Of a DNA stretch of 23,790 bases, positions 247-23,740 are shown in pieces. Origin of the DNA: a virus. The stretch is from UHGV virus genome UHGV-0045959; one strand, 5' to 3'. The position numbers were made by a program, and so were the translations under genes. Each line of letters starts with the position of its first letter. Positions within the stretch are counted from its first letter, which is position 1. Under the pieces are notes generated by a model. It did no database searches, had not been told where the DNA came from, and saw nothing but the letters and a program-made list of their open reading frames with translations.

Positions 247-1227
247 TTATAACGTCACTCCGCCTTTTAGTGGATTCAGAGCGACGGCATTTTGCAGATA
301 GTCAGGCGCAAGGTGCGCATAGGCCATCGTCTGCTGAATGCTCGCATGTCCCAGAATCTGTTGCAGTGCGATTATATTGCCCCCATTCATCATGAAATGG
401 CTTGCGAATGTATGCCGCAGGATGTGGGTTGCCTGATTGGGTGGTATATCAGGTTTCACTCTGCGTAAAATCCCGCAAAATTTCTCATAATCAACTTTGA
501 ATAATTTGGCGCTGGCCTCCTCTTTAACTTTTTTCTCCAGTTCCTCAGAAATCGGCACGGTTCGCTTTTTACCGTTTTTGGTTTTCAGGAAGGTAACCCT
601 GCAATTTGTAATCTGTGCTGGTTTTAGCGTGGCAACTTCCGTCCATCTTCCTCCGGTGCTCAGACATAAAAGCGCGACAAGTAAGTCATCACCAGCCAAA
701 ACATTTAACAGTTTTTCGATTTCTGCTTTTTCCAGGAACGTCATTTCAGGGTTGGCCTCCGCCAGTGGCGGCAGTCCGTGAATTGGGTGTTGCCCGGAAA
801 ATTCATCCAATTGAATTAATTTTGTGAACATGCCGGATAATCGGTACATGTCACGGTTTATCGTTGCGGCACTGATACCATCACGTAGTCGCATGGAACG
901 ATAATCCATCAAAGCCCTTTTGCTCATCCTGCTCACTGGTATATCACCTATGCCGCTGATGGTTTTGAGTAGATGATTAAACTCTTTTGTTCCATGCTCG
1001 TGGTTTTGCCCGTGATATTTCCACCAGATGTCCAGCAACTCACTCAAAGTCCGGCGGTCTGCTCGCTGGCCTCCCCATTCTTTCTGACTGGCATTGGCGA
1101 TTGTGTATCGCTCAAATGCTAGTGCTTCAGCTTTTCTTTCGAATTTCCTGCGGATGCGTTTTCCGTCGCGACCGCGAGGTCTAATGTCCACTTCATAGCG
1201 ACCATCATCGAGCTTCTTAATTGCCAT
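247..1227 (-). CDS. int: tyrosine integrase (P2 Int family)
   Basis: ORF 247..1257; probable start at the internal MAIKKLDDGRYEV (about 326 aa). C-terminal catalytic region ATHILRHTFASHF...LGHASIQQTMAYAH shows the H-x-x-R...Y pattern of tyrosine recombinases. Lies at the edge of the phage next to the repressor. Confidence 0.9.
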   Translation of the reverse strand: MAIKKLDDGRYEVDIRPRGRDGKRIRRKFERKAEALAFERYTIANASQKEWGGQRADRRTLSELLDIWWKYHGQNHEHGTKEFNHLLKTISGIGDIPVSRMSKRALMDYRSMRLRDGISAATINRDMYRLSGMFTKLIQLDEFSGQHPIHGLPPLAEANPEMTFLEKAEIEKLLNVLAGDDLLVALLCLSTGGRWTEVATLKPAQITNCRVTFLKTKNGKKRTVPISEELEKKVKEEASAKLFKVDYEKFCGILRRVKPDIPPNQATHILRHTFASHFMMNGGNIIALQQILGHASIQQTMAYAHLAPDYLQNAVALNPLKGGVTL

Positions 1228-1296
1228 AAGAAAGCCCTCCGGCGCTGTATTCACCATCTTGGTAGCAAATGGTGAAAATGTAATCTTTATATAGAG

Positions 1297-1590
1297 TTAG
1301 CCAATCCTTTTCGCGGAGTGGTTGGACTCTGTTGACTCTGGCCCAATGTGCGCGAGAGCCGGTGCGATTTGTCCTGCGTCCGGCGCGGTTTTATCTGTCA
1401 TAAGCCATAGAGCATATTTTTGGAATGTGGGATGCATAGTGATTTTTAGCAAAGCTGTGCCACCGGGTTCAAAGTTTCCTCCTTCATATTTTTTAAGTGT
1501 GCTTAGCGGTAACTCTATGATTTCACAGAATTTTGATTGGCTTAGCCCTTCAGCCTCACGCAAGGCCTTAATCTTTTCGCTTAATTTCAT
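1297..1590 (-). CDS. C: immunity repressor (P2 C-like, 97 aa)
   Basis: Small HTH-like protein (LSQSKFCEIIELPLSTLKKYE) upstream of and co-oriented with int, divergent from cox; C-terminus QIAPALAHIGPE resembles the P2 C repressor. Confidence 0.8.
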   Translation of the reverse strand: MKLSEKIKALREAEGLSQSKFCEIIELPLSTLKKYEGGNFEPGGTALLKITMHPTFQKYALWLMTDKTAPDAGQIAPALAHIGPESTESNHSAKRIG

Positions 1591-1711: not shown

Positions 1712-1726
1712 ATGAGGGTACCATAT

Positions 1727-1999
1727 ATGGACGCTGAAAATTATGTGATTCAGTATCCGCTTGATGCGGTTCATGTGGATAAATTTGCTGATTTATTAGG
1801 GAAGCCAAAGACAGCCGTCAGTGAAATGGTGAAGGCAAATAAATTACCAATTATTGAATTGCGTGATCCTTGCAAACCGAAGGCTCGTGCCGGTGAAAAA
1901 TGGGTTTTCATTCCTGAGTTTAATCGCGCTGTACGTGAGGCGTTTTATAACCGACCGGTTGAACAGCGTGATGCATGGCTTTTGTGGATGGGGTTGTGA
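1727..1999 (+). CDS. cox: Cox-like excisionase / transcriptional regulator
   Basis: ORF 1712..1999; GAGGG Shine-Dalgarno 8 nt before the ATG at 1727 gives about 90 aa. First gene of the rightward early operon; C-terminus DAWLLWMGL as in P2 Cox. Confidence 0.75.
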   Translation: MDAENYVIQYPLDAVHVDKFADLLGKPKTAVSEMVKANKLPIIELRDPCKPKARAGEKWVFIPEFNRAVREAFYNRPVEQRDAWLLWMGL

Positions 2000-3483: not shown

Positions 3484-3755
3484 GTATTCGTATTGAAATT
3501 GGCGAACGTTATGTCGTTACCAGTGACAGCTTTCAGTTTATTCTCCACGAGAAAAAGAGAGCGGAAAGCGGTAAAAACGCCGGTCAGGAATGGCTGGCGG
3601 TGGTTGGTTATTACCCGAAATTAGGCCAGCTCGTTTCCGGCCTGATGCATCACGATATTCTGACCGGAAGCGCAAAATCTTTTGCTGATTTAAACGCGCA
3701 GGTTGAGCAACTCAGCAAGCGTTGTTCAGAGGCTTTTGGCTCATATGGCCGTTAA
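3480..3755 (+). CDS. hypothetical early protein (91 aa)
   Basis: ATGA overlap with the preceding ORF at 3480..3483; its 3' end overlaps the A start. Confidence 0.55.
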   Translation: MSIRIEIGERYVVTSDSFQFILHEKKRAESGKNAGQEWLAVVGYYPKLGQLVSGLMHHDILTGSAKSFADLNAQVEQLSKRCSEAFGSYGR

Positions 3756-6024
3756 AGCCTCCGGGCGTTTTGTCCCTCCGTCAGCATTTACCGCAGGCAC
3801 CGGTAAGGCGTTTACCGGTGCTTATGCATGGAACGCGCCACGCGAGGCTGTCGGGCGCGAAAGACCTCTTACACGTGACGAGATGCGTCAGGTGCAAGGT
3901 GTTTTATCCACGATTAACCGCCTGCCTTACTTTTTGCGCTCGCTGTTTACTTCACGCTATGACTACATCCGGCGCAATAAAAGCCCGGTGCACGGGTTTT
4001 ATTTCCTCACATCTACTTTTCAGCGTCGTTTATGGCCGCGCATTGAGCGTGTGAATCAGCGCCATGAAATGAACACCGACGCGTCGTTGCTGTTTCTGGC
4101 AGAGCGTGACCACTATGCGCGCCTGCCGGGAATGAATGACAAGGAGCTGAAAAAGTTTGCCGCCCGTATCTCATCGCAGCTTTTCATGATGTATGAGGAA
4201 CTCTGCGATGCATGGGTTGATGCGCATGGTGAAAAAGAATCGCTGTTTACGGATGAGGCGCAGGCTCACCTGTATGGTCATGTTGCTGGCGCTGCACGTG
4301 CTTTCAATATTTCCCCGCTCTACTGGAAAAAATACCGTAAAGGACAGATGACCACGAGGCAGGCATATTCTGCCATTGCCCGCCTGTTTAACGATGAGTG
4401 GTGGACTCATCAGCTTAAAGGCCAGCGTATGCGCTGGCATGAGGCGTTACTGATAGCTGTCGGGGAGGTCAATAAAGACCGTTCTCCTTATGCCAGTAAA
4501 CACGCCATTCGTGATGTGCGTGCGCGCCGCCAGGCAAATCTGGAATTTCTTAAATCGTGTGACCTTGAAAACAGGGAAACCGGCGAGCGCATCGACCTTA
4601 TCAGTAAGGTGATGGGCAGTATTTCTAATCCTGAAATTCGCCGGATGGAGCTGATGAACACCATTGCCGGTATTGAGCGTTACGCCGCCGCAGAGGGTGA
4701 TGTGGGGATGTTTATCACGCTGACCGCGCCGTCAAAGTATCACCCGACACGTCAGGTCGGAAAAGGCGAAAGTAAAACCGTTCAGCTTAATCACGGCTGG
4801 AACGATGAGGCATTTAATCCAAAGGATGCGCAGCGTTATCTCTGCCGTATCTGGAGCCTGATGCGCACGGCATTCAAGGATAATGATTTACAGGTCTACG
4901 GTTTGCGAGTCGTCGAGCCACACCACGACGGAACGCCGCACTGGCATATGATGCTTTTTTGTCATCCACGCCAGCGTAACCAGATTATCGAAATCATGCG
5001 TCGCTATGCGCTCAAAGAGGATGGCGACGAAAGAGGAGCCGCGCGAAACCGTTTTCAGGCAAAACACCTTAACCGGGGCGGTGCTGCGGGATATATCGCG
5101 AAATACATTTCAAAAAACATCGACGGCTATGCACTGGATGGTCAGCTCGATAACGACACCGGCAGGCCGCTGAAAGACACTGCAGCGGCTGTTACCGCAT
5201 GGGCGTCAACGTGGCGCATTCCGCAATTTAAAACGGTTGGCCTGCCGACAATGGGGGCTTACCGTGAACTACGCAAATTGCCTCGCGGCGTCAGCATTGC
5301 TGATGAGTTTGACGAGCGCGTCGAGGCTGCACGCGCCGCCGCAGACAGTGGTGATTTTGCGCTGTATATCAGCGCGCAGGGCGGGGCAAATGTCCCGCGC
5401 GATTGTCAGACTGTCAGGGTCGCCCGTAGTCTGTCGGATGACGTTAACGAGTACGAGGAAGAAGTCGAGAGAGTGGTCGGCATTTACGCGCCGCATCTCG
5501 GCGCGCGTCATATTCATATCACCAGAACGACGGACTGGCGCATTGTGCCGAAAGTTCCGGTCGTTGAGCCTTTGACTTTAAAAAGCGGCATCGCCGCGCC
5601 TCGGAGTCCTGTCAATAACTGTGGAAAGCTCACCGGTGGTGATACTTCGTTACCGGCTCCCACACCTTCTGAGCACGCCGCAGCAGTGCTAAATCTGGTT
5701 GATGACGGTGTTATCGAATGGAATGACCCGGAGGTCGTGAGGGCGCTCAGGGGTGCATTAAAACACGGTCGGAGAACGCCAGGTCGTCAGCAAAGAAACG
5801 GAAGCCCGTTAAAACCACATGAAATTGCACCATCGGCCAGACTGACCCGGTCTGAACGATTGCAAATCACCCGTATCCGTGTTGACCTTGCTCAAAACGG
5901 TATCAGGCCGCAGCGATGGGAGCTTGAGGCGTTAGTACGCGGTGCGATCGTCAATTACAATGAAAAGCAATTTTCATATCCTAGTGTAGATGAGTGGAGT
6001 GGGTTTTCTGGTTATTCAGAGTAA
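3745..6024 (+). CDS. A: rolling-circle replication initiator endonuclease (P2 A family)
   Basis: ORF 3703..6024; likely start at the in-frame ATG 3745 (MAVKASGRF) just before the upstream stop. Contains the HWHMMLF-type motif and GYIAKYISKN segment typical of P2 A-like initiators; about 760 aa. Confidence 0.9.
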   Translation: MAVKASGRFVPPSAFTAGTGKAFTGAYAWNAPREAVGRERPLTRDEMRQVQGVLSTINRLPYFLRSLFTSRYDYIRRNKSPVHGFYFLTSTFQRRLWPRIERVNQRHEMNTDASLLFLAERDHYARLPGMNDKELKKFAARISSQLFMMYEELCDAWVDAHGEKESLFTDEAQAHLYGHVAGAARAFNISPLYWKKYRKGQMTTRQAYSAIARLFNDEWWTHQLKGQRMRWHEALLIAVGEVNKDRSPYASKHAIRDVRARRQANLEFLKSCDLENRETGERIDLISKVMGSISNPEIRRMELMNTIAGIERYAAAEGDVGMFITLTAPSKYHPTRQVGKGESKTVQLNHGWNDEAFNPKDAQRYLCRIWSLMRTAFKDNDLQVYGLRVVEPHHDGTPHWHMMLFCHPRQRNQIIEIMRRYALKEDGDERGAARNRFQAKHLNRGGAAGYIAKYISKNIDGYALDGQLDNDTGRPLKDTAAAVTAWASTWRIPQFKTVGLPTMGAYRELRKLPRGVSIADEFDERVEAARAAADSGDFALYISAQGGANVPRDCQTVRVARSLSDDVNEYEEEVERVVGIYAPHLGARHIHITRTTDWRIVPKVPVVEPLTLKSGIAAPRSPVNNCGKLTGGDTSLPAPTPSEHAAAVLNLVDDGVIEWNDPEVVRALRGALKHGRRTPGRQQRNGSPLKPHEIAPSARLTRSERLQITRIRVDLAQNGIRPQRWELEALVRGAIVNYNEKQFSYPSVDEWSGFSGYSE

Positions 6025-6233
6025 TAAACATAATGTTTTAGATTGGTTGCATAATGGTAAGGTTGCTGTTTATCTGTATATGTTAATATGATTACGCTAC
6101 GTACAAACAATCGACATTTCTTTTTTTCTATATATTAATATTGATGATTTTACTGGTGGTACAATAAGTCTATGTTGAAATTCGAGAATTGTATTATTAA
6201 CAATAAAAACTGGTTCTTTTTATTATACAAGGA

Positions 6234-6315
6234 NNNNNNNNNNNNNNNNNNNNNNNNNNNNNNNNNNNNNNNNNNNNNNNNNNNNNNNNNNNNNNNNNNN
6301 NNNNNNNNNNNNNNN
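6234..6315. other. assembly gap (run of N) inside the A-cos cargo island
   Basis: 82 consecutive N; the stop codon of the 827-aa gene lies 11 nt to its right. Confidence 0.99.
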
Positions 6316-6326
6316 TCTTTTACTGT

Positions 6327-8810
6327 TTAACGAGGGTTTCGCGTATAGGTTTCAACTATGTCTGATGCACGTAATTTACATGTGATCAATTGTTCTCTTA
6401 TAAATATCTCATCGTGTCGTTTATCACTTGTACAAATGGCCGTGATAAAACTGAGGATAGATGCTTTAAAACGTTCAAGATCATTTATGGTCATTATTCG
6501 AGACCCTTCGTTTAGTGTTGCGGCATATTCAGGCATATTAGAGTGATGTATCATTATAGGTGTGGCGGTAGCAGTTTGATCATACATGTTTCTGAACCAT
6601 GCACCCGACCCATTTAACTGATTGCAGTCATGCTTACTTATTCTTTCTGCGGTTGCTCCATTTTTGCATTCAATTACTAGATAATTGTTTTCTCCCATTG
6701 CCCATAAATTGTCAGGTCCTTTACCTGTATCATTTTCTGGCCGTTGGCTACGAAAACCGACCAAATATGCAACTTTTTCGATAGCATCTTCGAAGGGATT
6801 CGATGTGCCCTCGGAGAAAATAAGGTTTTCTATTATTGAATTAGTATGCACAACGACTTGATTGGCCGATTCAAAATTACTTCTGAGATAGGAGCTACAT
6901 TCCCTGGCCTGTTCAAGTGCCGCACCATTAAGTCTATTATATGTTACGCCGATTAGTGGTTTTAATACCCGATAGTTATCGTTTGATGCAGACTGAAGCA
7001 ATATCTGAGCTTCAGATTTGTCATATAAGTTTACATATTCCGCAGCATGTTCTTTTAGATAACCCTTATAAACTTTGTCAGCTGTACTACTATCATTTTT
7101 TAGAGTTAAAGCGGCTTGTTGAAACATATTTCGTGATGCTAAGTCATATGCCAATCTTTTATTTATAGTATGCTGGTCAATCTGCTTATTTTCCAATGTT
7201 AAGCCAGTCAATATACCTTTGCTTTTTGAGACCCAGTCAGAATTGCGTAACAGACAATAATCAAGAGCACCTTTGATTGAATCAATAGTTGTATCCGGCA
7301 GTATCGATACCAATTGCTGTGAAAGTTGAATTTGTGCTTTCGTTGCTGGAGAAAACCTTTCTAAGGAGGAGCCAAGGAAAACAGCGCCATTTAATGCTTT
7401 GCCAAGTAAGATCACTCCGCAGAAGTCGTCGCTTGATCTCACTCCTCGCCCCATTCCTTGTTCAATTTTCTGGATAATTTCATCTTTGGTTTTTTCGCTT
7501 CCAAGCAATAAGCTTTGTGAGACTTTATCTATTAGTCTACGAACGTCAGGAAGTCCATCTATTACTAATAGACGACATGCGGTATTTGGTAAATCAATAC
7601 CATCATATCTATTAACTAGGACTACTAAGCCAACATGTTGTGTCCTTAATTCTTGTACACCTTGATAAATTGTATTTTTATCTAATATTCTGTCTGCAAC
7701 ATCTTGCCAAAATCTAGTTCTGTAATCGGATGGTACAATTACAACAACATTATGTTTGGAGGATATCTCCTTGCACATAGCTTTGATATCTACATCAGAA
7801 AGACTAGGGTTTATAACCTGAGGCATTAGTATCATTCTATCACCAATATCACCAATTGTTTTTGGTGTTATCGGATTAGAGAGTGATTCATCCGTTATTC
7901 CGAAGTGGCTCGCTAGAATGGATTCATCGACAAGAGTAGCTGTCATGAATATTTTTCTTCTTGCGTTTGATAGGCTTGGGATCATTTGGATTGGTATGCA
8001 ATGAGGTGATATCTCTATTTTGGAAGCACTTACAACGCATTTCGATAATATTAGATTGTCTTTTATTAATGGCCATTTGAAACTCAAGTCATCATGGTCT
8101 TTATTTTCTAACAAGATTGTCATTATATCATTTATGCTTTCTTGCCATTTCCAAAATGGAACTCTCACATAAGCATTTCTATCGCCGGATTTTATCTCTA
8201 GTGTTTTTGCACCAGCTTGTGTCATTAGTGAATTTTCAAAAATTCTGAATAATTTATCATAGGCAGGGTTGTTTTTTTGAATGCTAATGGAGAATTGTTC
8301 TTCAATTGAAGAAAGGCAAGCGTGAGCATCGTCAATTATTATAGAACCTATTGGTATTCTTTGTCCATCATCTCCAACGCCAAATGCAGAACGTCCATTA
8401 ACCACTTTGAATATATTTGTAACTAAAATTTCTTTACCTGCAATAAATTTGGGGGACCTCTCATCTTGAGTTACAGGTATACCAAGTTGATTAGCCTCCA
8501 AAACCACTTGCTCAACTAGATAGTTGTCAGGAACAACATATACAGCGGGACCTTCTCCTTCATTTATACAGCTTTTAAGAATGATTAACCCAACTGAAGT
8601 TTTACCGCTTCCGGTATTCATTTTTATTACATTGGTTGGGCTTCTCCTTGCTTCATACCATTTTTCCCAGACCTCTGATTGCACATCTCGAGGGTATTGA
8701 AATTTGGTGTCTTTGCTCGGTAGAGCTGTAAATATATCTCGCGGTGGAATCGCTGTGTCGCTATTTACACTGGGCGAAAGCTTGGTTAAATCAAGGAAAA
8801 AACCAGACAT
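6327..8810 (-). CDS. SF2 helicase fused to a C-terminal PD-(D/E)xK-like nuclease module; candidate single-protein anti-phage defence gene
   Basis: 827-aa ORF with GAGGA Shine-Dalgarno 7 nt upstream of the ATG. Helicase motifs in order: I MNTGSGKTS (aa 64-72), II IIIDDAH (aa 157-163), III MTATL, V YDGIDLP, VI QGMGRGVR (aa 451-458). C-terminal GPD (aa 698-700) followed 14 residues later by VIECK (aa 712-716). Markedly AT-rich compared with flanking phage genes. Confidence 0.8.
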   Translation of the reverse strand: MSGFFLDLTKLSPSVNSDTAIPPRDIFTALPSKDTKFQYPRDVQSEVWEKWYEARRSPTNVIKMNTGSGKTSVGLIILKSCINEGEGPAVYVVPDNYLVEQVVLEANQLGIPVTQDERSPKFIAGKEILVTNIFKVVNGRSAFGVGDDGQRIPIGSIIIDDAHACLSSIEEQFSISIQKNNPAYDKLFRIFENSLMTQAGAKTLEIKSGDRNAYVRVPFWKWQESINDIMTILLENKDHDDLSFKWPLIKDNLILSKCVVSASKIEISPHCIPIQMIPSLSNARRKIFMTATLVDESILASHFGITDESLSNPITPKTIGDIGDRMILMPQVINPSLSDVDIKAMCKEISSKHNVVVIVPSDYRTRFWQDVADRILDKNTIYQGVQELRTQHVGLVVLVNRYDGIDLPNTACRLLVIDGLPDVRRLIDKVSQSLLLGSEKTKDEIIQKIEQGMGRGVRSSDDFCGVILLGKALNGAVFLGSSLERFSPATKAQIQLSQQLVSILPDTTIDSIKGALDYCLLRNSDWVSKSKGILTGLTLENKQIDQHTINKRLAYDLASRNMFQQAALTLKNDSSTADKVYKGYLKEHAAEYVNLYDKSEAQILLQSASNDNYRVLKPLIGVTYNRLNGAALEQARECSSYLRSNFESANQVVVHTNSIIENLIFSEGTSNPFEDAIEKVAYLVGFRSQRPENDTGKGPDNLWAMGENNYLVIECKNGATAERISKHDCNQLNGSGAWFRNMYDQTATATPIMIHHSNMPEYAATLNEGSRIMTINDLERFKASILSFITAICTSDKRHDEIFIREQLITCKLRASDIVETYTRNPR

Positions 8811-8870
8811 TTTTTATCCTCTTACAGGTACATTAGTTTAATTGTTAACGCAGAATTATCATTACCATAA

Positions 8871-8900
8871 CTTGCATTAAGTTGCATTACATTGCATTCA
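8871..8900. repeat. three tandem 10-bp repeats containing TTGCATT
   Basis: cTTGCATTaa / gTTGCATTac / aTTGCATTca at 8871..8900, 61-90 bp upstream of the 827-aa gene start and about 95 bp from cos. Confidence 0.6.
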
Positions 8901-8993
8901 TAAACGTTAGCTAGGGGCGAAGTCTGAGGTTTGATGGGCTATGGTGTCCCCTTTAATACGAGGTTGCATCAAAACCGCCCCATGAAGCGGGCG

Positions 8994-9012
8994 GGCGAGG
9001 CGGGGAAAGCAC
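8994..9012. other. cos: cos site (P2-type 19-nt cohesive-end sequence)
   Basis: GGCGAGGCGGGGAAAGCAC matches the P2 cohesive-end sequence as I recall it; located upstream of the Q/P packaging genes as in P2. Confidence 0.75.
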
Positions 9013-9181: not shown

Positions 9182-10216
9182 TCAGCCGTTGTCAGTGTCC
9201 AGTGAGTAGTTTTTAAAGCGGATGACCTCCTGACCGAGCCAGCCGTTTATCTCGCGGATCCTGTCCTGTAGCGGGATAAGCTCATTGCGGACAAAGACCT
9301 TTGCCACTTTCTCAATATCTCCCAGTGACCCGACGTTCTCCGGCTTGCCGCCCATCAACTGAAAGGGGATGCGGTGCGCGTCCAGCAGGTCAGCGGCGCT
9401 GGCTTTTTTGATATTAAAAAAATCGTCCTTCGTTGCCACTTCACTGAGCGGGATAATTTTAATGCCGTCAGCTTTCCCCTGCGGGGCATAGAGAAACAGA
9501 TTTTTAAAGTTGTTGCGGCCTTTCGACTTAACCATGTTTTCGCGAAGCATTTCGATATCGTTGCGGTCCTGCACGGCATCGGTGACGTACATGATATATC
9601 CGGCATGAGCGCCGTTTTCGTAATACTTGCGGCGGAACAGCGTGGCTGACTCATTCAGCCAGGCAGAGTTAAGGGCGCTCAGATATTCTGGCAGGCCGTA
9701 CAGCTCCTGATTGATATCCGGCTCCAGCAGGTGAAACACGGAGCCGGGCGTGAAAGGTGTCGGCTCGTTGAAGGACGGCACCCACCAGTAAACATCCTCC
9801 TCCACGCCACGACGGGTATATTTTGCCGGTGAGGTTTCCAGTCTGATGACCTTACCGGTGGTGCTGTAACGCTTTTCCAGAAACGCATTACCGAACACCA
9901 GAAAATCCAGCACAAAGCGGCTGAAATCCTGCTGGGAAAGCCACGGATGCGGGATAAATGTTGAGGCCAGAATATTACGTTTGACGTAAATCGGTGAGCT
10001 GTGATGCACGGCAGCACGCAGGCTTTTTGCCAGACCGGTAAAGCTGACCGGTGGTTCATACCATCTGCCGTTACTGATGCACTCGACGTAATCCAGAATG
10101 TCACGGCGGTCGAGTACCGGTACCGGCTCGCCAAAGGTGAATGCTTCCATTTTCGGGGCGCTGGCGGTCATTTTTTTGGCCGCAGGTTGCGGTGTTTTCC
10201 CTTTTTTCTTGCTCAT
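9182..10216 (-). CDS. Q: portal protein (gpQ)
   Basis: 344 aa, identical in size to P2 gpQ; first gene clockwise of cos, co-oriented with the terminase; start overlaps the P stop by 1 nt. Confidence 0.9.
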   Translation of the reverse strand: MSKKKGKTPQPAAKKMTASAPKMEAFTFGEPVPVLDRRDILDYVECISNGRWYEPPVSFTGLAKSLRAAVHHSSPIYVKRNILASTFIPHPWLSQQDFSRFVLDFLVFGNAFLEKRYSTTGKVIRLETSPAKYTRRGVEEDVYWWVPSFNEPTPFTPGSVFHLLEPDINQELYGLPEYLSALNSAWLNESATLFRRKYYENGAHAGYIMYVTDAVQDRNDIEMLRENMVKSKGRNNFKNLFLYAPQGKADGIKIIPLSEVATKDDFFNIKKASAADLLDAHRIPFQLMGGKPENVGSLGDIEKVAKVFVRNELIPLQDRIREINGWLGQEVIRFKNYSLDTDNG

Positions 10217-11988
10217 CAGTAAAACTCCAGAATGGTGGATGTCAGCGGGGTGCTGATACCGGCGGTGAGTGGCTCATTTAACAGGGCGTGCATGGTCGCC
10301 CAGGCGAGGTCGGCGTGGCTGGCTTCCTCGCTGCGGCTGGCCTCATACGTGGCGCTGCGTCCGCTGCTGGTCATGGTCTTGCGGATAGCCATAAACGAGC
10401 TGGTGATGTCGGTGGCGCTGACGTCATATTCCAGACAGCCACGGCGGATGACGTCTTTTGCCTTGAGCACCATTGCGGTTTTCATTTCCGGTGTGTAGCG
10501 GATATCGCGCGCGGCGGGATAGAACGAGCGCACGAGCTGGAACACGCCGACACCGAGGCCGGTGGCATCAATACCGATGTATTCGACGTTGTATTTTTCG
10601 GTGAGTTTGCGGATGGATTCCGCCTGAGTGGCAAAGTCCATGCCTTTCCACTGGTGACGCTCAAGTATTCTGAATTTGCCACCGGCCACCACCGGCGGTG
10701 CCAGTACCACGCATCCGGCGCTGTCGCCACGGTGTGACGGGTCGTAACCAATCCATACCGGGCGGGAGCCGAACGGATTCGCGGCAAACGGCGCATAGTC
10801 TTCCCATTCTTCCAGCGTGTCGACCATGCAGCGTTGCAGCTCCTCGAACGGGAACACCGACGCCTTGTCGTCAACAAATTCACACATGAACAGGTTTTTA
10901 AAATCGTCGGCGCTGTTTTCACGTTTGAGCTGCTCAATGTCGAACAGCGTGCAGCCGCCTTTCAGCGCGTCCTCAATGGTGACAATCTGCCGCCACTGGC
11001 CGTCTGCACAGAGAAGCCCACCGGCAAGGGCGTTATGACTGACGTCGATTTCCACGCGTTCGGCGGCGCTGGCGCGTCCCCGGTTGAACAGTTCACCCGA
11101 CCAGAACGGGTAGGCGTCGTGCGCCAGCGTGGACGGGGTGGAGAAATAGGTCGAACGCAGGTGACTCTGTGAGGCCATACCTGATGCCACCTTACGCAGT
11201 ACCTGAAAATTCGGGATCCAGAAAATCTCGTCGACGTACAGGTCGCCGTTATGGCTCTGCGCGGTGTTGGAGTTGGTGCCGAGAAAAATCAGTTTTGCGC
11301 CGTTATTGCCCAGGACAATCGGGTCACCGGTCAGGTCAACGTCAACCAGCCGGGCAAAGGCGATGATGTATTCGCGGAACACATACGCCTGCGTTTTACT
11401 GGCCGACAGAAAAATCTGGTTATGACCGGTTTTCAGGGCGCGCAGCAGCGCCTCGCGGGAAAAATAAAACGTCGCGCCAATCTGGCGGGATTTCAGGATA
11501 TCGCGGATGCGGTGCTCAAGCCCGGCGCGATACCAGTGCAACTGATATTCGAAAGACTGCTCAAAGAAAATCTGCTCCAGCTTTTCGATGGCCTCGTCAC
11601 TGAAAAAATTCTTTTTCGGTTTGCGCCGCCCGCCTTTGTTGCGGTTAGCGACGTTCGGATTAAGGTCTGCCTCGTTGCCGGTCTGACTGTAACGGTTGAC
11701 CCGTGCCAGTCGTTCAATCTGGCGTCCCAGCAGGTCAATTTCCTTGAAGTCACCGCCGGTTTTCTGCGGTTTGATGATGAGCTGGGTCAGCCGCGCTTCC
11801 AGACTCATTTCGACACGGCTGATGGGGGCAACGCTGTCCCAGCCGTCGCGCTGTTTCCAGCTCTGCACCGTCGGGCGTTTCATCTGCAACATGGCGGCAA
11901 TCTGCGGCACGGAAAATCCCTGCCAGTACAGCAGCGCCGCCTGACGACGCGGGTCGTGTAAAAGAGTGGTGTCTGTGGTGATGGTCAT
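10216..11988 (-). CDS. P: terminase large subunit (gpP)
   Basis: ORF 10216..12018; likely start at MTITTDTTLL (11988), about 590 aa as in P2 gpP. Confidence 0.9.
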   Translation of the reverse strand: MTITTDTTLLHDPRRQAALLYWQGFSVPQIAAMLQMKRPTVQSWKQRDGWDSVAPISRVEMSLEARLTQLIIKPQKTGGDFKEIDLLGRQIERLARVNRYSQTGNEADLNPNVANRNKGGRRKPKKNFFSDEAIEKLEQIFFEQSFEYQLHWYRAGLEHRIRDILKSRQIGATFYFSREALLRALKTGHNQIFLSASKTQAYVFREYIIAFARLVDVDLTGDPIVLGNNGAKLIFLGTNSNTAQSHNGDLYVDEIFWIPNFQVLRKVASGMASQSHLRSTYFSTPSTLAHDAYPFWSGELFNRGRASAAERVEIDVSHNALAGGLLCADGQWRQIVTIEDALKGGCTLFDIEQLKRENSADDFKNLFMCEFVDDKASVFPFEELQRCMVDTLEEWEDYAPFAANPFGSRPVWIGYDPSHRGDSAGCVVLAPPVVAGGKFRILERHQWKGMDFATQAESIRKLTEKYNVEYIGIDATGLGVGVFQLVRSFYPAARDIRYTPEMKTAMVLKAKDVIRRGCLEYDVSATDITSSFMAIRKTMTSSGRSATYEASRSEEASHADLAWATMHALLNEPLTAGISTPLTSTILEFY

Positions 11989-12161
11989 GAATACCTCGCC
12001 GTGATGAATACACGGCAAGGCTACTGAGTCGCGCCCCGCGATTCGCTAAGGTGCTGTTGTGTCAGTGATAAGCCATCCGGGACTGATGGCGGAGGATGCG
12101 CATCGTCGGGAAACTGATGCCGACATGTGACTCCTCTAATCACTATTCAGGACTCCTGACA
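11989..12161. promoter_or_regulatory. divergent late-promoter region between P and O
   Basis: 173-bp intergenic region between divergently transcribed P and O, where P2 has its Ogr-dependent late promoters. Small inverted repeat CCGTG-n7-CACGG at 11999..12015. No consensus element confirmed. Confidence 0.4.
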
Positions 12162-20321: not shown

Positions 20322-20925
20322 TTCGCGCCTGCTGCCGACCGGCTCATCACCGCTTGAAGTTGCCGCCGCAAAAGCCTGTGCGGAAATTGAAAAAACGCCG
20401 GTCAGTATTCGTGAACTGTGGAACCCGGATACCTGTCCGGCAAATCTGCTGTCGTGGCTGGCGTGGTCATTTTCGGTTGACCGCTGGGATGATAAGTGGC
20501 CGGAAGCGACAAAACGCGCTGTTATCCGCGATGCGTATTTCATTCACTGCCATAAGGGCACTATAGGCGCAATCCGGCGTGTGGTGGAGCCGCTCGGCTA
20601 TCTGATTGAGGTGAGGGAGTGGTGGCAGCTCAACGAGGAACCGGGGACGTTCCGCATCGTTGTTGGCGTGCTTGAGCAGGGTATTACCGAGGAAATGTAT
20701 CAGGAGCTGGAGCGTCTCGTTGCTGATGCAAAACCTGCAAGCCGCCATCTGACGGGACTGGCTATCAGTTTAAGTACAACCGGCAACATTTTTGCCGGTG
20801 CGGGATGCTATCACGGCGACGCCCTGACGGTTTATCCCTACACCCCGGAGGCCATTATTGTCGGAGGGGATTATTTCCCGGCCTCGGCCATTCATTTAAT
20901 TGATAACCTGAGAGTAAACGCATGA
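20314..20925 (+). CDS. I: baseplate / tail-fibre attachment protein (gpI-like)
   Basis: 203 aa between J and the tail-fibre gene, overlapping both neighbours; somewhat longer than the P2 gpI size I recall. Confidence 0.8.
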   Translation: MSDSRLLPTGSSPLEVAAAKACAEIEKTPVSIRELWNPDTCPANLLSWLAWSFSVDRWDDKWPEATKRAVIRDAYFIHCHKGTIGAIRRVVEPLGYLIEVREWWQLNEEPGTFRIVVGVLEQGITEEMYQELERLVADAKPASRHLTGLAISLSTTGNIFAGAGCYHGDALTVYPYTPEAIIVGGDYFPASAIHLIDNLRVNA

Positions 20926-22217
20926 CAGTGAAATACTACGCCATTCTGACTAATCAGGGCGCAGCACGGCTGGCTAACGCGACGATGCTTGGCAGTAAGC
21001 TGAATCTGACGCAAATGGCCGTTGGTGATGCGAATGGTGTCTTGCCGACACCAGACCCGGCACAGACAAAACTGATTAATCAGAAACGCATTGCACCGCT
21101 GAATCTTCTGAGTGTTGACCCGAACAACCAGAGCCAGATTATTGCGGAGCAAATCATCCCTGAGAACGAGGGCGGATTCTGGATCCGTGAGATTGGGCTT
21201 TATGATGATGAAGGCGTACTCATTGCGGTGGCCAACTGCCCGGAAACGTACAAACCGCAGTTACAGGAAGGCAGTGGTCGTACCCAGACTATCCGCATGA
21301 TTCTGGTTGTCACGAATATCGAAGCCATCACGCTGAAAATCGACCCGTCGGTGGTACTGGCGACCCGTAAATATGTGGATGATGAAGTCCTGGAATTAAG
21401 GCTGTATGTGGATGACCAGATGAGAAACCACATTGCCGCACAGGATCCTCATACCCAGTATGCACAGAAACATAATCCGACATTTACCGGAGAACCAAAA
21501 GCCCCGACGCCTGCCGCAGGAAATAACACCACGCGGATTGCGACCACTGAGTTTGTTCAGGCCGCTATTACCGCTCTGATTAACGGCGCGCCAGCCACGC
21601 TGGACACACTGAAAGAAATTGCCGCAGCCATTAACAATGACCCGAAATTCAGCACCACTATTAACAATGCGCTGTCAGGTAAGCAGCCACTGGATGAGAC
21701 GCTGACTCATTTGAGCGGAAAGGATGTTGCCGGCCTTCTCGCATACCTTGGTTTGGGAGAAACGATAAATAGAGCCTCCAGAGCTATGCAGAAATCGGCT
21801 AATGGATCTGATATTTCTGATGTATCAGCCTTCCGAAATGCGCTCCAGTTAGGGACCGCTGCAACACGAGATGTTGGAGCAGATAATGCCTCGAAGTTAC
21901 TGGATTTAGACAGCTTCAGGTCAATGATGTCAGGTAATGGCTACATCTACATTCCATGCATTGCGACGACAGGAAACCCGGTGAAACTTATGTTGCAGTG
22001 GGGAACGGTGGCAACACAAAAGGGAGCTGATGCTGGATATGCCTTACCATTTGCTTTTCCCTATGCAGGCTTGTTTGCGACCGGAAACCGTGGAACATCT
22101 GGCTACAATGCCGCGATGAATGTGCGTATTGCCAGCAGAACGCATATCAGTATTCAGAACTGGTCGCCATCCGGAGAGGGCACCGAAGATTGTTGTTTTA
22201 TCGCGCTGGGGTATTAA
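20922..22217 (+). CDS. H: tail fibre protein (gpH-like): constant N-terminal part plus currently expressed variable C-terminal tip
   Basis: 431 aa with a conserved phage tail-fibre N-terminus (MTVKYYAILTNQGAARLANA...FWIREIGLYDDEGVLIAVAN); the C-terminal 150 aa lie inside the invertible segment. Shorter than P2 gpH. Confidence 0.88.
   Translation: MTVKYYAILTNQGAARLANATMLGSKLNLTQMAVGDANGVLPTPDPAQTKLINQKRIAPLNLLSVDPNNQSQIIAEQIIPENEGGFWIREIGLYDDEGVLIAVANCPETYKPQLQEGSGRTQTIRMILVVTNIEAITLKIDPSVVLATRKYVDDEVLELRLYVDDQMRNHIAAQDPHTQYAQKHNPTFTGEPKAPTPAAGNNTTRIATTEFVQAAITALINGAPATLDTLKEIAAAINNDPKFSTTINNALSGKQPLDETLTHLSGKDVAGLLAYLGLGETINRASRAMQKSANGSDISDVSAFRNALQLGTAATRDVGADNASKLLDLDSFRSMMSGNGYIYIPCIATTGNPVKLMLQWGTVATQKGADAGYALPFAFPYAGLFATGNRGTSGYNAAMNVRIASRTHISIQNWSPSGEGTEDCCFIALGY
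21736..21761. other. left recombination (crossover) site of the invertible tail-fibre segment (gix/cix/hix-like)
   Basis: 26-bp TTCTCGCATACC-TT-GGTTTGGGAGAA with imperfect dyad symmetry; its reverse complement matches the first 14 bp of the right site and 20 of 26 positions of the hix-type consensus as I recall it. Lies inside H at codons 272-280 (LLAYLGLGE). Confidence 0.7.
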
Positions 22218-22219
22218 GA

Positions 22220-22636
22220 ATGAATAAATTTTATAAAGGCTCTTTCTATCCGAAAGCACTAAAAGAGGTATATATCAGCGCCGGTTCATGGCCTGAAAAT
22301 GGCGTTGATGTTGATGATGAAACAATAGCAATTTACACAGGCGTAGCGCCAGAAGGCAAAACGCTGGGGGCTGATAAAAATGGTAATCCTGCATGGATTG
22401 ATATCCCGCCACTCTCCGCTGAACAACAGATTATTCAGGCTGAACAGAAAAGAACGGTATTGCGTTCAATGGCTGATAAGGAAATAGTCTGGAGACAGGA
22501 TGCTTTTGATGCGGAAATCGCGACGGCAGAAGAAACCGCCGCGTTGTCTGAATGGAAAAAATATCGGGTCTTACTGATGCGCGTTGATACATCAAATCCC
22601 GTCTGGCCTACGCCTCCGGGGGAGCAGGCCAATTGA
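22220..22636 (+). CDS. G: tail fibre assembly chaperone (gpG/Tfa-like) for the expressed fibre tip
   Basis: ORF 22190..22636; ATG at 22220 (MNKFYKGSFYP), 3 nt after the H stop. C-terminus VDTSNPVWPTPPGEQAN is the conserved Tfa C-terminal motif. Confidence 0.8.
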   Translation: MNKFYKGSFYPKALKEVYISAGSWPENGVDVDDETIAIYTGVAPEGKTLGADKNGNPAWIDIPPLSAEQQIIQAEQKRTVLRSMADKEIVWRQDAFDAEIATAEETAALSEWKKYRVLLMRVDTSNPVWPTPPGEQAN

Positions 22637-23228
22637 TATCCGGCGCGGTGCTGGTATCAGTTACCGTCACCGCGTCAATGTAATCCAGCACGACGTTAAG
22701 CCGGGTGGTTTCTGTCTGCGTCAGTTTTCGCCCGGCCTGCAATTTCAGTTGAATCAGATTAATGGAAGCCATTGCAGTATCAATCAGTGACTGTCGCTGT
22801 GTTTCTGCCGCGCCTACTGCGGCGCTATGCTGTGCCTCAGTATCTGTCACCCATTTCTCACCATCCCATTCATCGTATGGCGTTAACGGGGCGACAGTGG
22901 TTGTGTTTTCAGGGTAATCCCCCGGAGTGGTGATTTCTGCTGCCTCACGGGTTTCTGTGTTATAGACTGTCTCACCCCGATGGTCCGGCACGTACTCCCA
23001 CGCGGTCAGGTCGGCTGTGCGGCAAATTGCATAACCAGCCCGCCTTTCCCCGGGGGCATCAGTGCATGAATGTGCAGGAAGGCCAACGCCCACAGCCAGA
23101 TATTCGGTTGACGTGCAAAGGTATTCCCGCGTCTTATTATCGTAGCTGTGGACAACAACCTCTCCTGCAACTGTTGCCAGCCGCGATTCATTCAGCACCG
23201 CTGTAGTCATGGTTTTCTTGCTCATCAT
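22608..23228 (-). CDS. alternative tail fibre assembly chaperone (Tfa') serving the silent fibre tip
   Basis: 206 aa on the minus strand; C-terminus VTDTSTAPDINWPAPPEA parallels the C-terminus of the plus-strand Tfa; its 3' end overlaps that gene by 29 bp. Confidence 0.78.
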   Translation of the reverse strand: MMSKKTMTTAVLNESRLATVAGEVVVHSYDNKTREYLCTSTEYLAVGVGLPAHSCTDAPGERRAGYAICRTADLTAWEYVPDHRGETVYNTETREAAEITTPGDYPENTTTVAPLTPYDEWDGEKWVTDTEAQHSAAVGAAETQRQSLIDTAMASINLIQLKLQAGRKLTQTETTRLNVVLDYIDAVTVTDTSTAPDINWPAPPEA

Positions 23229-23740
23229 GCAGCCCTTACGATGTAGTTAAATGCAATGTTACGTGGCCTTGCATAACCCAGATACTGAATCCCCCAGGCT
23301 CCCACTGGAACGGGGTTCCAGATATGTTCTGTAGGTATACTTTTCGCTCTGAGAATATCTGAATTGGTTTCAGTTTTATCCCATCCCAGCAGGGCAATGT
23401 CGTTTACCGAAAACTGCACCACGCTGTCGGGTGATATATTGGCTTCCTGAACCAGATAAGAGCCTTTTTGCCACGACAACAACGTCCGGCTACTGTCCAC
23501 TCCGCGCCCGTCATCCCAGCCACGAATAAATTCACCACGTAAATCAGGCAATATATTTGTCGGGTAAGCCTTTGCCAGTTCCGGGTATTCTTCAGCAGAA
23601 AATGCCGCCCCGTTGCATTTCAGCCAGCCTGTTGGCAGTGTGGCTGAAGGCCACGGAACAGGCACACCAACGGGTAATACAGAGCCTTCTCCCAAACCAA
23701 CGTTTATGAAAATGCAGAGATAACGGGCAAGTGGCATCAT
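23225..23740 (-). CDS. alternative tail-fibre C-terminal cassette (Sv'-like), silent in this orientation
   Basis: 171-aa ORF containing a phage tail-collar-like motif LPDLRGEFIRGWDDGRG. Residues 14-18 VGLGE are encoded by the right crossover site and match the LGLGE junction in H. Only sequence downstream of the crossover would be fused to H after inversion. Confidence 0.75.
   Translation of the reverse strand: MMPLARYLCIFINVGLGEGSVLPVGVPVPWPSATLPTGWLKCNGAAFSAEEYPELAKAYPTNILPDLRGEFIRGWDDGRGVDSSRTLLSWQKGSYLVQEANISPDSVVQFSVNDIALLGWDKTETNSDILRAKSIPTEHIWNPVPVGAWGIQYLGYARPRNIAFNYIVRAA
23687..23712. other. right recombination (crossover) site of the invertible segment
   Basis: TTCTCCCAAACC-AA-CGTTTATGAAAA; first 14 bp identical to the reverse complement of the left site, central AA dinucleotide matching. 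Confidence 0.7.

Follow-up and report, generated by a model that had tools for sequence, protein, structure and literature searches.

What kind of protein is encoded by the single large gene between the replication gene A and the cos site of this P2-like prophage, and what might it do there? The window (the whole stretch of 23,790 nucleotides that we analysed) carries at this place an 827-aa reading frame with the motifs of an SF2 ATPase. The first-pass annotation held that the product was not placeable in a named family and might be an undescribed variant. However, full-length sequence comparison, a PADLOC HMM and the predicted fold all identify it as Hna ('helicase-nuclease abortive infection'). 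Very probably the gene, here called hna, specifies a single-protein anti-phage system of the Hna family that was acquired horizontally as cargo of the P2-like prophage hotspot, and for which a mechanism can be proposed by homology.

The hna gene and the P2 hotspot

The gene lies in the gpA-cos-Q defence hotspot of P2 as defined in PMC9122126. The locus consists of the following features.

3703..6024, plus strand: P2 replication endonuclease gpA, which borders the hotspot on the left
6229..6324, no strand assigned: hairpin plus T-run, just 3' of the stop codon of hna and beyond the 3' end of gpA
6327..8810, minus strand: hna, encoding the 827-aa Hna-family protein (ORF call; RefSeq WP_000012516.1)
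8811..8993, minus strand: hna upstream region
8994..9012, plus strand: exact copy of the P2 cos 19-mer (cohesive end) GGCGAGGCGGGGAAAGCAC, marking the hotspot's right edge
9182..10216, minus strand: P2 portal protein gpQ, which borders the hotspot on the right

The cos 19-mer is matched with 0 mismatches, and 0 matches are expected by chance. RefSeq labels WP_000012516.1 a 'DEAD/DEAH box helicase family protein'.

The gene stands alone. An absence of partner genes between gpA and cos had been noted before, and indeed this interval holds no other ORF of at least 80 aa, nor did we find a hidden partner among the small ORFs or in the masked gap. That gap, an N-run at 6235-6315 which masks part of the hairpin, stands for 19 bp only (CCACCTCCTTAGGAGGTGG), as seen in 100%-identical E. 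coli records, where the masked part is a hairpin. No conserved neighbour was found around three homologues (Legionella, Pseudomonas and Pectobacterium loci), whose adjoining genes are unrelated, and a PADLOC scan of the other early-region ORFs detected no further defence genes.

A Shine-Dalgarno sequence (AAGAGGA) is located 6 nt ahead of the hna ATG. Further upstream are three TTGCATT repeats with 10-bp phasing (8872-8898); we checked this triple repeat for association with hna, and it does not travel with the gene. A simple scan of the upstream region found no strong sigma-70 consensus.

The GC content of hna is 37.4%, in contrast to 53.6% elsewhere in the window. This P2 region has matches in 2152 complete E. 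coli genomes, and only 70 of them carry hna, which is thus accessory. Among deposited phage genomes, tblastn returned only one distant match, on a Salmonella contig; hna is therefore unseen in the isolated P2-like phages of that collection. A search for literature linking Hna to P2-like phages found nothing relevant.

The protein has been catalogued in the P2 hotspot since 2022 and is not an undescribed system. WP_000012516 appears in the locus table of Rousset et al. 2022, where it belongs to P2-hotspot system #28, 'ResIII/DEAD' (Table S5B). Over the part of the system #28 entry that was compared, it is one residue apart from the window protein (K for R150). In that work the protein was a catalogue entry and was neither cloned nor tested. 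A literature search found no experiments on this hna allele.

ATPase core, nuclease and family assignment

The product is divided into two RecA-like domains, a linker and a nuclease, which are encoded as follows.

7911..8705, minus strand: HEL1, RecA-like domain 1, about aa 36-300 (AF2 model, approximate bounds), with the Q-motif (R41/Q44), Walker A or motif I GSGKT (aa 67-71), motif Ia VVPDN (aa 92-96), Walker B or motif II DDAH (aa 160-163), an Arch-like helical insertion at about aa 182-255, and motif III TAT (aa 290-292)
7371..7853, minus strand: HEL2, the second RecA-like domain (about aa 320-480), which is of the XPD/DinG type (Pfam Helicase_C_2) and contains motif V DGIDLP (aa 403-408) and motif VI QGMGRGVR (aa 451-458)
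6828..7367, minus strand: all-helical linker from the ATPase core to the nuclease, about aa 482-661 (AF2 secondary structure)
6330..6827, minus strand: C-terminal PD-(D/E)xK nuclease, with D700 and E714-C-K716

The ordered SF2 motifs of the 827-aa product are present where the first-pass annotation placed them, namely at 8598-8612 (motif I), 8322-8333 (II), 7935-7943 (III), 7587-7604 (V) and 7437-7460 (VI). The span it reported, 7431-8633, corresponds to aa 60-460, and the Q-motif is found upstream of it. Its numbering of the Walker B aspartates as D159 and D160 is off by one; they are D160 and D161. Three Pfam families match over their gathering scores: ResIII (38.8 bits), DEAD (34.5 bits) and Helicase_C_2 (26.5 bits). 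In 30 homologues, which extend down to 51% identity, residues K70, T71, D160, D161, H163, T290, A291, D406, Q451, R455 and R458 are invariant. These scores and this invariance place the SF2 core motifs beyond chance.

The core had been read as a type III Res-like signature. However, both the Helicase_C_2 match and the second tier of Foldseek matches indicate that it is XPD/DinG-like. An Fe-S cluster is lacking, with only one Cys (C81) between motifs I and II, as reported for Hna. The description of this region as a helicase core is correct as far as the SF2 ATPase motifs are concerned, but 'helicase' is probably a misnomer, since no unwinding was seen with the purified S. meliloti protein, in which ATP binding instead restrains the nuclease (PMC13381803).

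The C-terminal PD-(D/E)xK nuclease was overlooked in the earlier annotation. Its residues E674, D700, E714, K716 and Q731 are all invariant. K716 is the counterpart of K729 in S. meliloti Hna, and the K729A substitution in that protein abolishes nuclease activity (PMC13381803).

The hna product is a member of the Hna family by full-length sequence, by the PADLOC HMM and by fold. A phmmer search of the PDB returned Hna only (10UJ/9YHN/9YKJ; E = 7e-121, aa 60-792). The profile of the window protein's family aligns with S. meliloti Hna along nearly the entire chain (3-826 against 2-841, E = 2e-163), BLASTP aligns the two proteins over 751 columns with 32% identity (E = 2e-129), and tblastn finds a match on S. 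meliloti 1021 pSymA with the same alignment as for Hna. The PADLOC model PDLC04986, 'PDC-S28', matches both proteins end to end, with 1054.6 bits for the window protein (aa 6-825) and 1018.5 bits for S. meliloti Hna. For the AF2 model of the 827-aa protein (pLDDT 83.9), the top PDB match in Foldseek is 'Hna Monomer' 9YHN (E = 1.3e-61, TM 0.70), and the second tier, at about 1e-12, consists of XPD/DinG/CasDinG. The Pfam composition given for Hna in PMC11232893 (ResIII plus Helicase_C_2) is the same as that found here, and the helical linker region can be aligned to S. meliloti Hna. PHROGs gives a full-length match to phrog_16128, a family of unknown function. A Dnd restriction domain was considered and rejected, its NCBIfam match being sub-threshold (23 bits vs a cut-off of 600).

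The catalytic and ATP-binding residues are conserved. R36/Q39 of S. meliloti Hna correspond to R41/Q44, K72/T73 to K70/T71, D162/D163 to D160/D161, and E727/K729 to E714/K716, all of which are invariant in the 30 homologues. Overall identity to the characterised S. meliloti protein is about 30-32%. The clade of the window protein has 51-55% identity and extends from enterobacteria to cyanobacteria and Legionella; homologues number roughly 4000. E. coli also has a plasmid-borne Hna-like gene, with about 29% identity, which belongs to a clade found on plasmids of Salmonella and E. coli.

Since S. meliloti Hna matches PDC-S28, both this model and system #28 are tied to the Hna family. PDC-S28 and 'ResIII/DEAD' are names without a function for the same family, with no structural difference from the window protein. 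Routine defence annotation would name this gene through the PADLOC model PDC-S28, and presumably also through the Hna model of DefenseFinder. A phenotype, structures and a mechanism are already available for the Hna family, and the discovery value of the gene itself is little.

Two quite different functions can be weighed against membership in a defence family. An orphan Res-like subunit of a type III restriction system, combining helicase and endonuclease and cutting unmodified foreign DNA, would account for the ResIII match (38.8 bits, aa 40-168) and for the order of the domains, in which an SF2 core precedes a C-terminal PD-(D/E)xK nuclease as it does in Res. However, the Mod methyltransferase is absent from 6025-8993 and from beside the homologues, and self-toxicity would be expected of a restriction enzyme that lacks its modification partner. 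Moreover, the second RecA domain is of the Helicase_C_2 (XPD/DinG) type and not Helicase_C, and the top Foldseek matches include no type III Res structure whereas Hna is matched at E = 1e-61. We regard a Res subunit as highly improbable.

Hardly more credible is a housekeeping helicase with which the P2-like phage would replicate, recombine or repair its DNA, although hna adjoins replication gene A and PHROGs lists weak secondary matches to 'DNA helicase' families. The accessory distribution of the gene (70/2152 matching genomes), its deviating GC content (37% vs 54%) and its transcription opposite to the early operon all speak against such a role, as does its position at the locus that holds old and tin in P2. 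In addition, the family is found on plasmids and integrative islands without phage context, and the characterised Hna does not unwind DNA.

Proposed mechanism and its trigger

S. meliloti Hna is an ATP-inhibited 3'-5' ssDNA exonuclease (PMC13381803), and the mechanism and phenotype of Hna are described in PMC13381803 and PMC12445080. By homology, this allele would share the defence phenotype, the exonuclease polarity, the auto-inhibition as an ATP-bound dimer and the trigger. The N-terminal XPD/DinG-like SF2 ATPase core, which has no Fe-S cluster, would not unwind DNA but would serve as a nucleotide-dependent switch. In the ATP-bound state the protein would form an auto-inhibited homodimer with the C-terminal PD-(D/E)xK nuclease disengaged. 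When a competing phage infects, a phage protein (in the case of S. meliloti Hna, the SSB of the phage) would displace the dimer partner, and the released nuclease would digest DNA that has free 3' single-stranded ends, proceeding 3'-5'. Death or arrest of the infected cell without release of progeny (abortive infection) would follow, and both the lysogen population and the prophage would be protected. Sather et al. 2023 reportedly worked on S. meliloti Hna and tested an E. coli homologue too. According to PMC10732053, the Hna proteins of S. meliloti and E. coli are both activated by phage SSB; the E. coli allele in question may be another than the one described here.

The window protein differs from the characterised Hna exactly at the regulatory dimer/SSB interface. 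The HEL1 loop is present, but T30/D31/P34 of S. meliloti Hna, which have been shown to form the dimer interface and are predicted to be the SSB docking site, are replaced by D34/T35/Q38. Within its own clade the loop is strongly kept, with L30, P31, K33, Y39 and P40 invariant. Because the interface residues are not conserved, regulation and trigger may differ from those of S. meliloti Hna.

A protein with the same fold and catalytic centres may have diverged in function, responding to another phage factor or directly to DNA damage or ssDNA, and it may degrade phage replication intermediates without killing the cell. The identity of about 31% to S. meliloti Hna and the altered interface are consistent with such a change. 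The 51-55% identity kept across enterobacteria, cyanobacteria and Legionella likewise suggests that the clade has a constrained interface of its own, and in PMC13381803 different orthologues are expected to recognise different factors. Nevertheless, all catalytic and nucleotide-binding residues are kept, the full-length architecture is the same, and an E. coli Hna, which may be another allele, is SSB-activated as well (PMC10732053). On balance we think functional divergence rather unlikely, though well worth considering, and favor an Hna-type defence protein that acts as outlined above.

We offer a related proposal only tentatively. The enterobacterial and cyanobacterial clade may have rebuilt the HEL1 regulatory loop, such that the nuclease is gated by another phage protein or by another surface of SSB, and the gene may replace Tin on the P2 prophage. 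A different gating is suggested by the identity of about 31% to S. meliloti Hna and yet 51-55% conservation across phyla. P2 uses the host SSB, and could thus tolerate the gene. If true, the rebuilt loop would provide a convenient E. coli model for the evolution of Hna trigger specificity. Because of the difference at the interface, hna is a sensible orthologue, native to E. coli, with which to study variation in Hna trigger specificity.

Comparison with known systems

The founding member of the family is S. meliloti Hna (Sather et al. 2023, Cell Host Microbe 31:343), for which Hooper et al. 2026 (PMC13381803) give the structures 9YHN/9YKJ/10UJ. Like it, the window protein is a single polypeptide (both about 830-845 aa) with a HEL1-HEL2 XPD/DinG-like SF2 core without Fe-S, followed by a helical linker and by a PD-(D/E)xK nuclease at the C-terminus, and its fold has a reduced Arch domain. 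The Q-motif, Walker A and B, motif VI and the nuclease D...ExK are kept, the same PADLOC HMM matches both, and in each case a stand-alone gene is carried on a mobile element. However, that element is a megaplasmid (pSymA) in S. meliloti and a P2-like prophage here, and the window protein is without the 7-residue insert before Walker A.

The window protein resembles XPD/Rad3, DinG and the CRISPR-associated CasDinG (Csf4) in the fold of both RecA-like domains and in having an Arch-like insertion, and it is also matched by the PADLOC model typeIV_DinG. Those proteins, however, carry a 4-Cys Fe-S domain and are themselves real 5'-3' helicases; the additional C-terminal PD-(D/E)xK nuclease is found only here, and identity is 11-16%. 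Type III restriction-modification Res proteins also combine an SF2 ATPase with a C-terminal PD-(D/E)xK endonuclease and share the Pfam ResIII match, but here there is no Mod partner, the RecA2 type is another, and there was no close structural match.

The first-pass annotation had suggested an Hna- or Nhi-like architecture. The first half of this suggestion, a stand-alone protein of the helicase-nuclease type like Hna, agrees with our results. Nhi of Staphylococcus (Bari et al. 2022) is likewise a single-protein defence system that combines a nuclease with a helicase-type domain and responds to phage SSB. However, Nhi is a protein of about 610 aa in which an HsdR-like nuclease occupies the N-terminus and an SF1 (DUF2075) helicase the C-terminus (PMC11232893), whereas the window protein has 827 aa, the reverse domain order and an SF2 core. 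The window protein is therefore not Nhi-like, and the PADLOC Nhi model does not match it at E <= 1.

Finally, the tin and old genes of P2 occupy the same gpA-cos-Q locus and have the same role, the exclusion of competing phages, although the proteins are unrelated to the one described here. According to Mosig et al. 1997 (Virology 230:72), Tin reportedly acts through the T4 SSB gp32, which belongs to the class of proteins that triggers Hna.

The P2-like prophage and its cargo gene

The window covers most of a P2-like prophage.

Principal features of the window
247–1257, minus strand: integrase
1297–1590, minus strand: C-type repressor
1712–1999, plus strand: Cox
3703–6024, plus strand: replication endonuclease gpA, intact
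6327–8810, minus strand: 827-aa ORF (hna)
9182–10216, minus strand: portal gpQ
10216–12018, minus strand: terminase gpP
after gpP, plus strand: capsid, lysis and tail genes
22608–23228, minus strand: ORF in repeat-bracketed segment
23225–23740, minus strand: ORF in repeat-bracketed segment

The P2 cohesive-end 19-mer (GGCGAGGCGGGGAAAGCAC) is present in one exact copy at 8994–9012, and the positions of gpA, this cos sequence and gpQ therefore place the 827-aa ORF between gpA and cos/gpQ. In P2 itself this interval is the home of old and tin, and in 2022 Rousset et al. described the same locus as an anti-phage hotspot, for which they reported 1,650 gene arrangements in E. coli (PMC9122126). The hna insert has a G+C content of 37% versus 54% in the rest of the window, and is therefore acquired cargo. 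The first-pass annotation described the gene as lacking a partner, and this description holds: no second ORF of at least 80 aa was found between gpA and cos, and in Legionella, Pseudomonas syringae and Pectobacterium the genes next to the homologues are entirely different. A run of Ns at 6235–6315 masks 19 bp (CCACCTCCTTAGGAGGTGG) found in E. coli records whose flanking sequence matches on either side at 100% identity. With these 19 bp in place a GC-rich hairpin is complete; it is followed by a T-run and lies just past the hna stop codon.

Three exact TTGCATT heptamers with 10-bp spacing (8872–8898) precede the hna start codon by 62–88 bp and may be a regulator-binding site or part of a promoter; the repeats are absent upstream of the Pectobacterium homologue. 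A second run of Ns (53–113), flanked by C12 and G7T7 runs, is found near the integrase-side prophage end. Following cox is a 168-aa ORF (2163–2669) in a region of lower G+C (44–46%), which is labelled hypothetical in RefSeq and has no match in Pfam or PADLOC. In E. coli M217 (locus L001, 4160–9025), where the prophage is otherwise identical, gpA is interrupted by the IS21-family element ISEc12 (istA/istB), and this copy is therefore probably defective.

The arms of a 29-nt inverted repeat (TTCTCCCAAACCAA...) are located at 21733–21761, within tail-fibre gene H (20922–22217), and at 23687–23715. Between them, on the opposite strand, lie a second gene for tail-fibre assembly (Caudo_TAP) and a fragment containing a tail Collar domain. 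The bracketed segment looks like an invertible host-range segment, with a repeat that resembles the cix/gix crossover sites of the Cin/Gin invertases; the invertase would sit past the end of the window.

Assignment to the Hna family

The window protein (RefSeq WP_000012516) is a member of the Hna family by four independent lines of evidence. In a sequence search against solved structures the sole significant match is to 10UJ/9YHN/9YKJ (E = 7e-121), the cryo-EM structures of Sinorhizobium meliloti Hna (Hooper et al., bioRxiv 2025, Nat Commun 2026, PMC13381803), and the family profile aligns residues 3–826 to 2–841 of the Hna chain (E = 2e-163). The S. meliloti sequence used for comparison was reconstructed from a printed alignment, and its numbering matches all residues named in that work (R36, Q39, K72, T73, D162, D163, K729). 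The BLASTP alignment to this sequence spans 751 columns at 32% identity (E = 2e-129), and tblastn recovers it on the S. meliloti 1021 replicon pSymA, where hna has been reported (PMC12445080). Both the window protein (1054.6 bits, whole length) and S. meliloti Hna (1018.5 bits) match PADLOC PDLC04986 'PDC-S28', and this candidate family is therefore the Hna family.

The structure-based search proposed in the first-pass annotation agrees. Using an AlphaFold2 model (mean pLDDT 83.9), the best PDB match is 9YHN 'Hna Monomer' (E = 1.3e-61, TM 0.70, 832 columns), followed by both Hna dimer chains and then, with E-values higher by over ten orders of magnitude, by XPD, DinG and CasDinG at about 1e-12. 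The window protein lacks an Fe-S cluster, having a single cysteine between its Walker A and Walker B motifs. It is like Hna in this respect, and also in Pfam composition and size, tabulated for Hna as ResIII with Helicase_C_2 and about 840 aa (PMC11232893).

Nucleotides 7431–8633 correspond to aa 60–460, where five SF2 helicase motifs had been read. All five are confirmed at the stated positions and in the stated order: GSGKT (aa 67–71), DDAH (aa 160–163), TAT (aa 290–292), DGIDLP (aa 403–408) and QGMGRGVR (aa 451–458). The motif residues are invariant across 30 aligned homologues with identity down to 51%, and in the profile search that had been suggested Pfam ResIII, DEAD and Helicase_C_2 each exceed the gathering score. 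However, the Walker B aspartates are D160/D161 rather than D159/D160, and the PD-(D/E)xK nuclease that forms the C-terminal quarter of the protein had been overlooked. The Q-motif lies just upstream of the 7431–8633 span. Counterparts are present for every S. meliloti Hna residue shown to matter.

Functional residues of S. meliloti Hna and their counterparts in the window protein
Q-motif: R36/Q39; window protein R41/Q44
Walker A: K72/T73; window protein K70/T71
Walker B: D162/D163; window protein D160/D161
Nuclease: E727/K729; window protein E714/K716

Distribution and alternative assignments

Of 5,426 complete E. coli genomes, 2,152 match the flanks and 70 carry the gene. All 70 copies are chromosomal, at least 99% identical and in the gpA-cos-Q context. 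Hna is a large family with at least 3,958 matching proteins; it is also present on 268 plasmids, and has relatives at 51–55% identity in Pseudomonas, Legionella and many cyanobacteria.

Among the 268 plasmids are 36–37 kb Salmonella and E. coli plasmids (tblastn matches H55–H60) that carry a second enterobacterial Hna-like clade, with about 29% identity over 97% of the window protein; in several of these records the Hna-like sequence falls under no listed gene. Elsewhere the homologues adjoin defence-type genes in integrase-bounded islands or conjugative elements. These neighbours are a Gp49/HTH toxin-antitoxin-like pair and a DUF6685 protein in Legionella (L002–L004, 5331–5952 and 8625–9494), Lamassu-like genes (MC3, LmuB_C) in Pectobacterium (L007, 13675–14490), and a SIR2-TPR protein in P. 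syringae (L005, 10139–11842).

An orphan type III Res subunit is ruled out, as Mod is missing, one lobe is Helicase_C_2 and the ranking of structural matches speaks against it; superfamily and domain order rule out Nhi. Accessory distribution, composition, hotspot location and presence on non-phage elements are the grounds for rejecting a phage housekeeping helicase. The first-pass annotation correctly named Hna as a possibility; its suspicion of an undescribed variant was wrong. Rousset et al. list WP_000012516 among P2-hotspot loci as the single-gene arrangement 'ResIII/DEAD', which is system 28 in their summary table with 130 occurrences (PMC9122126). The printed sequence of system 28 begins identically to the window protein and, over the part compared, departs from it at one position. 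The protein is absent from their tables of cloned systems (PMC9122126), and we thus found no experiment on this allele. Within the characterised Hna defence family the window protein is an ordinary member, located in a known hotspot and catalogued before.

Predicted mechanism and comparison with Tin

By homology, the window protein would act according to the published model of S. meliloti Hna. That protein acts on ssDNA and 3' overhangs as a Mg/Mn-dependent 3'-5' exonuclease and lacks duplex-unwinding activity; once ATP is bound, a homodimer is stabilised via a loop of HEL1 (RecA-like domain 1), and in this dimer the nuclease domain is flexible and inactive (PMC13381803). Phage single-strand-binding protein (SSB) is stated to activate Hna proteins of S. 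meliloti as well as of E. coli (PMC10732053). We transfer the nuclease and ATP-switch chemistry to the window protein with fair confidence. The trigger is transferred with less confidence, because the window protein has D34/T35/Q38 in place of T30/D31/P34, the three interface residues at which S. meliloti Hna was mutated. The loop around them is invariant within the protein's own clade (L30, P31, K33, Y39, P40). A functionally diverged Hna is a reading that we consider rather unlikely, and we retain that of an ordinary family member; only the HEL1 interface loop might yield new insight.

Tin is the usual P2 occupant of the gpA-cos/gpQ locus. Mosig et al. are said to have described in 1997 that P2 Tin excludes T-even phages via the T4 SSB gp32. 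An SSB-sensing Hna at the tin locus would be a functional replacement for Tin.
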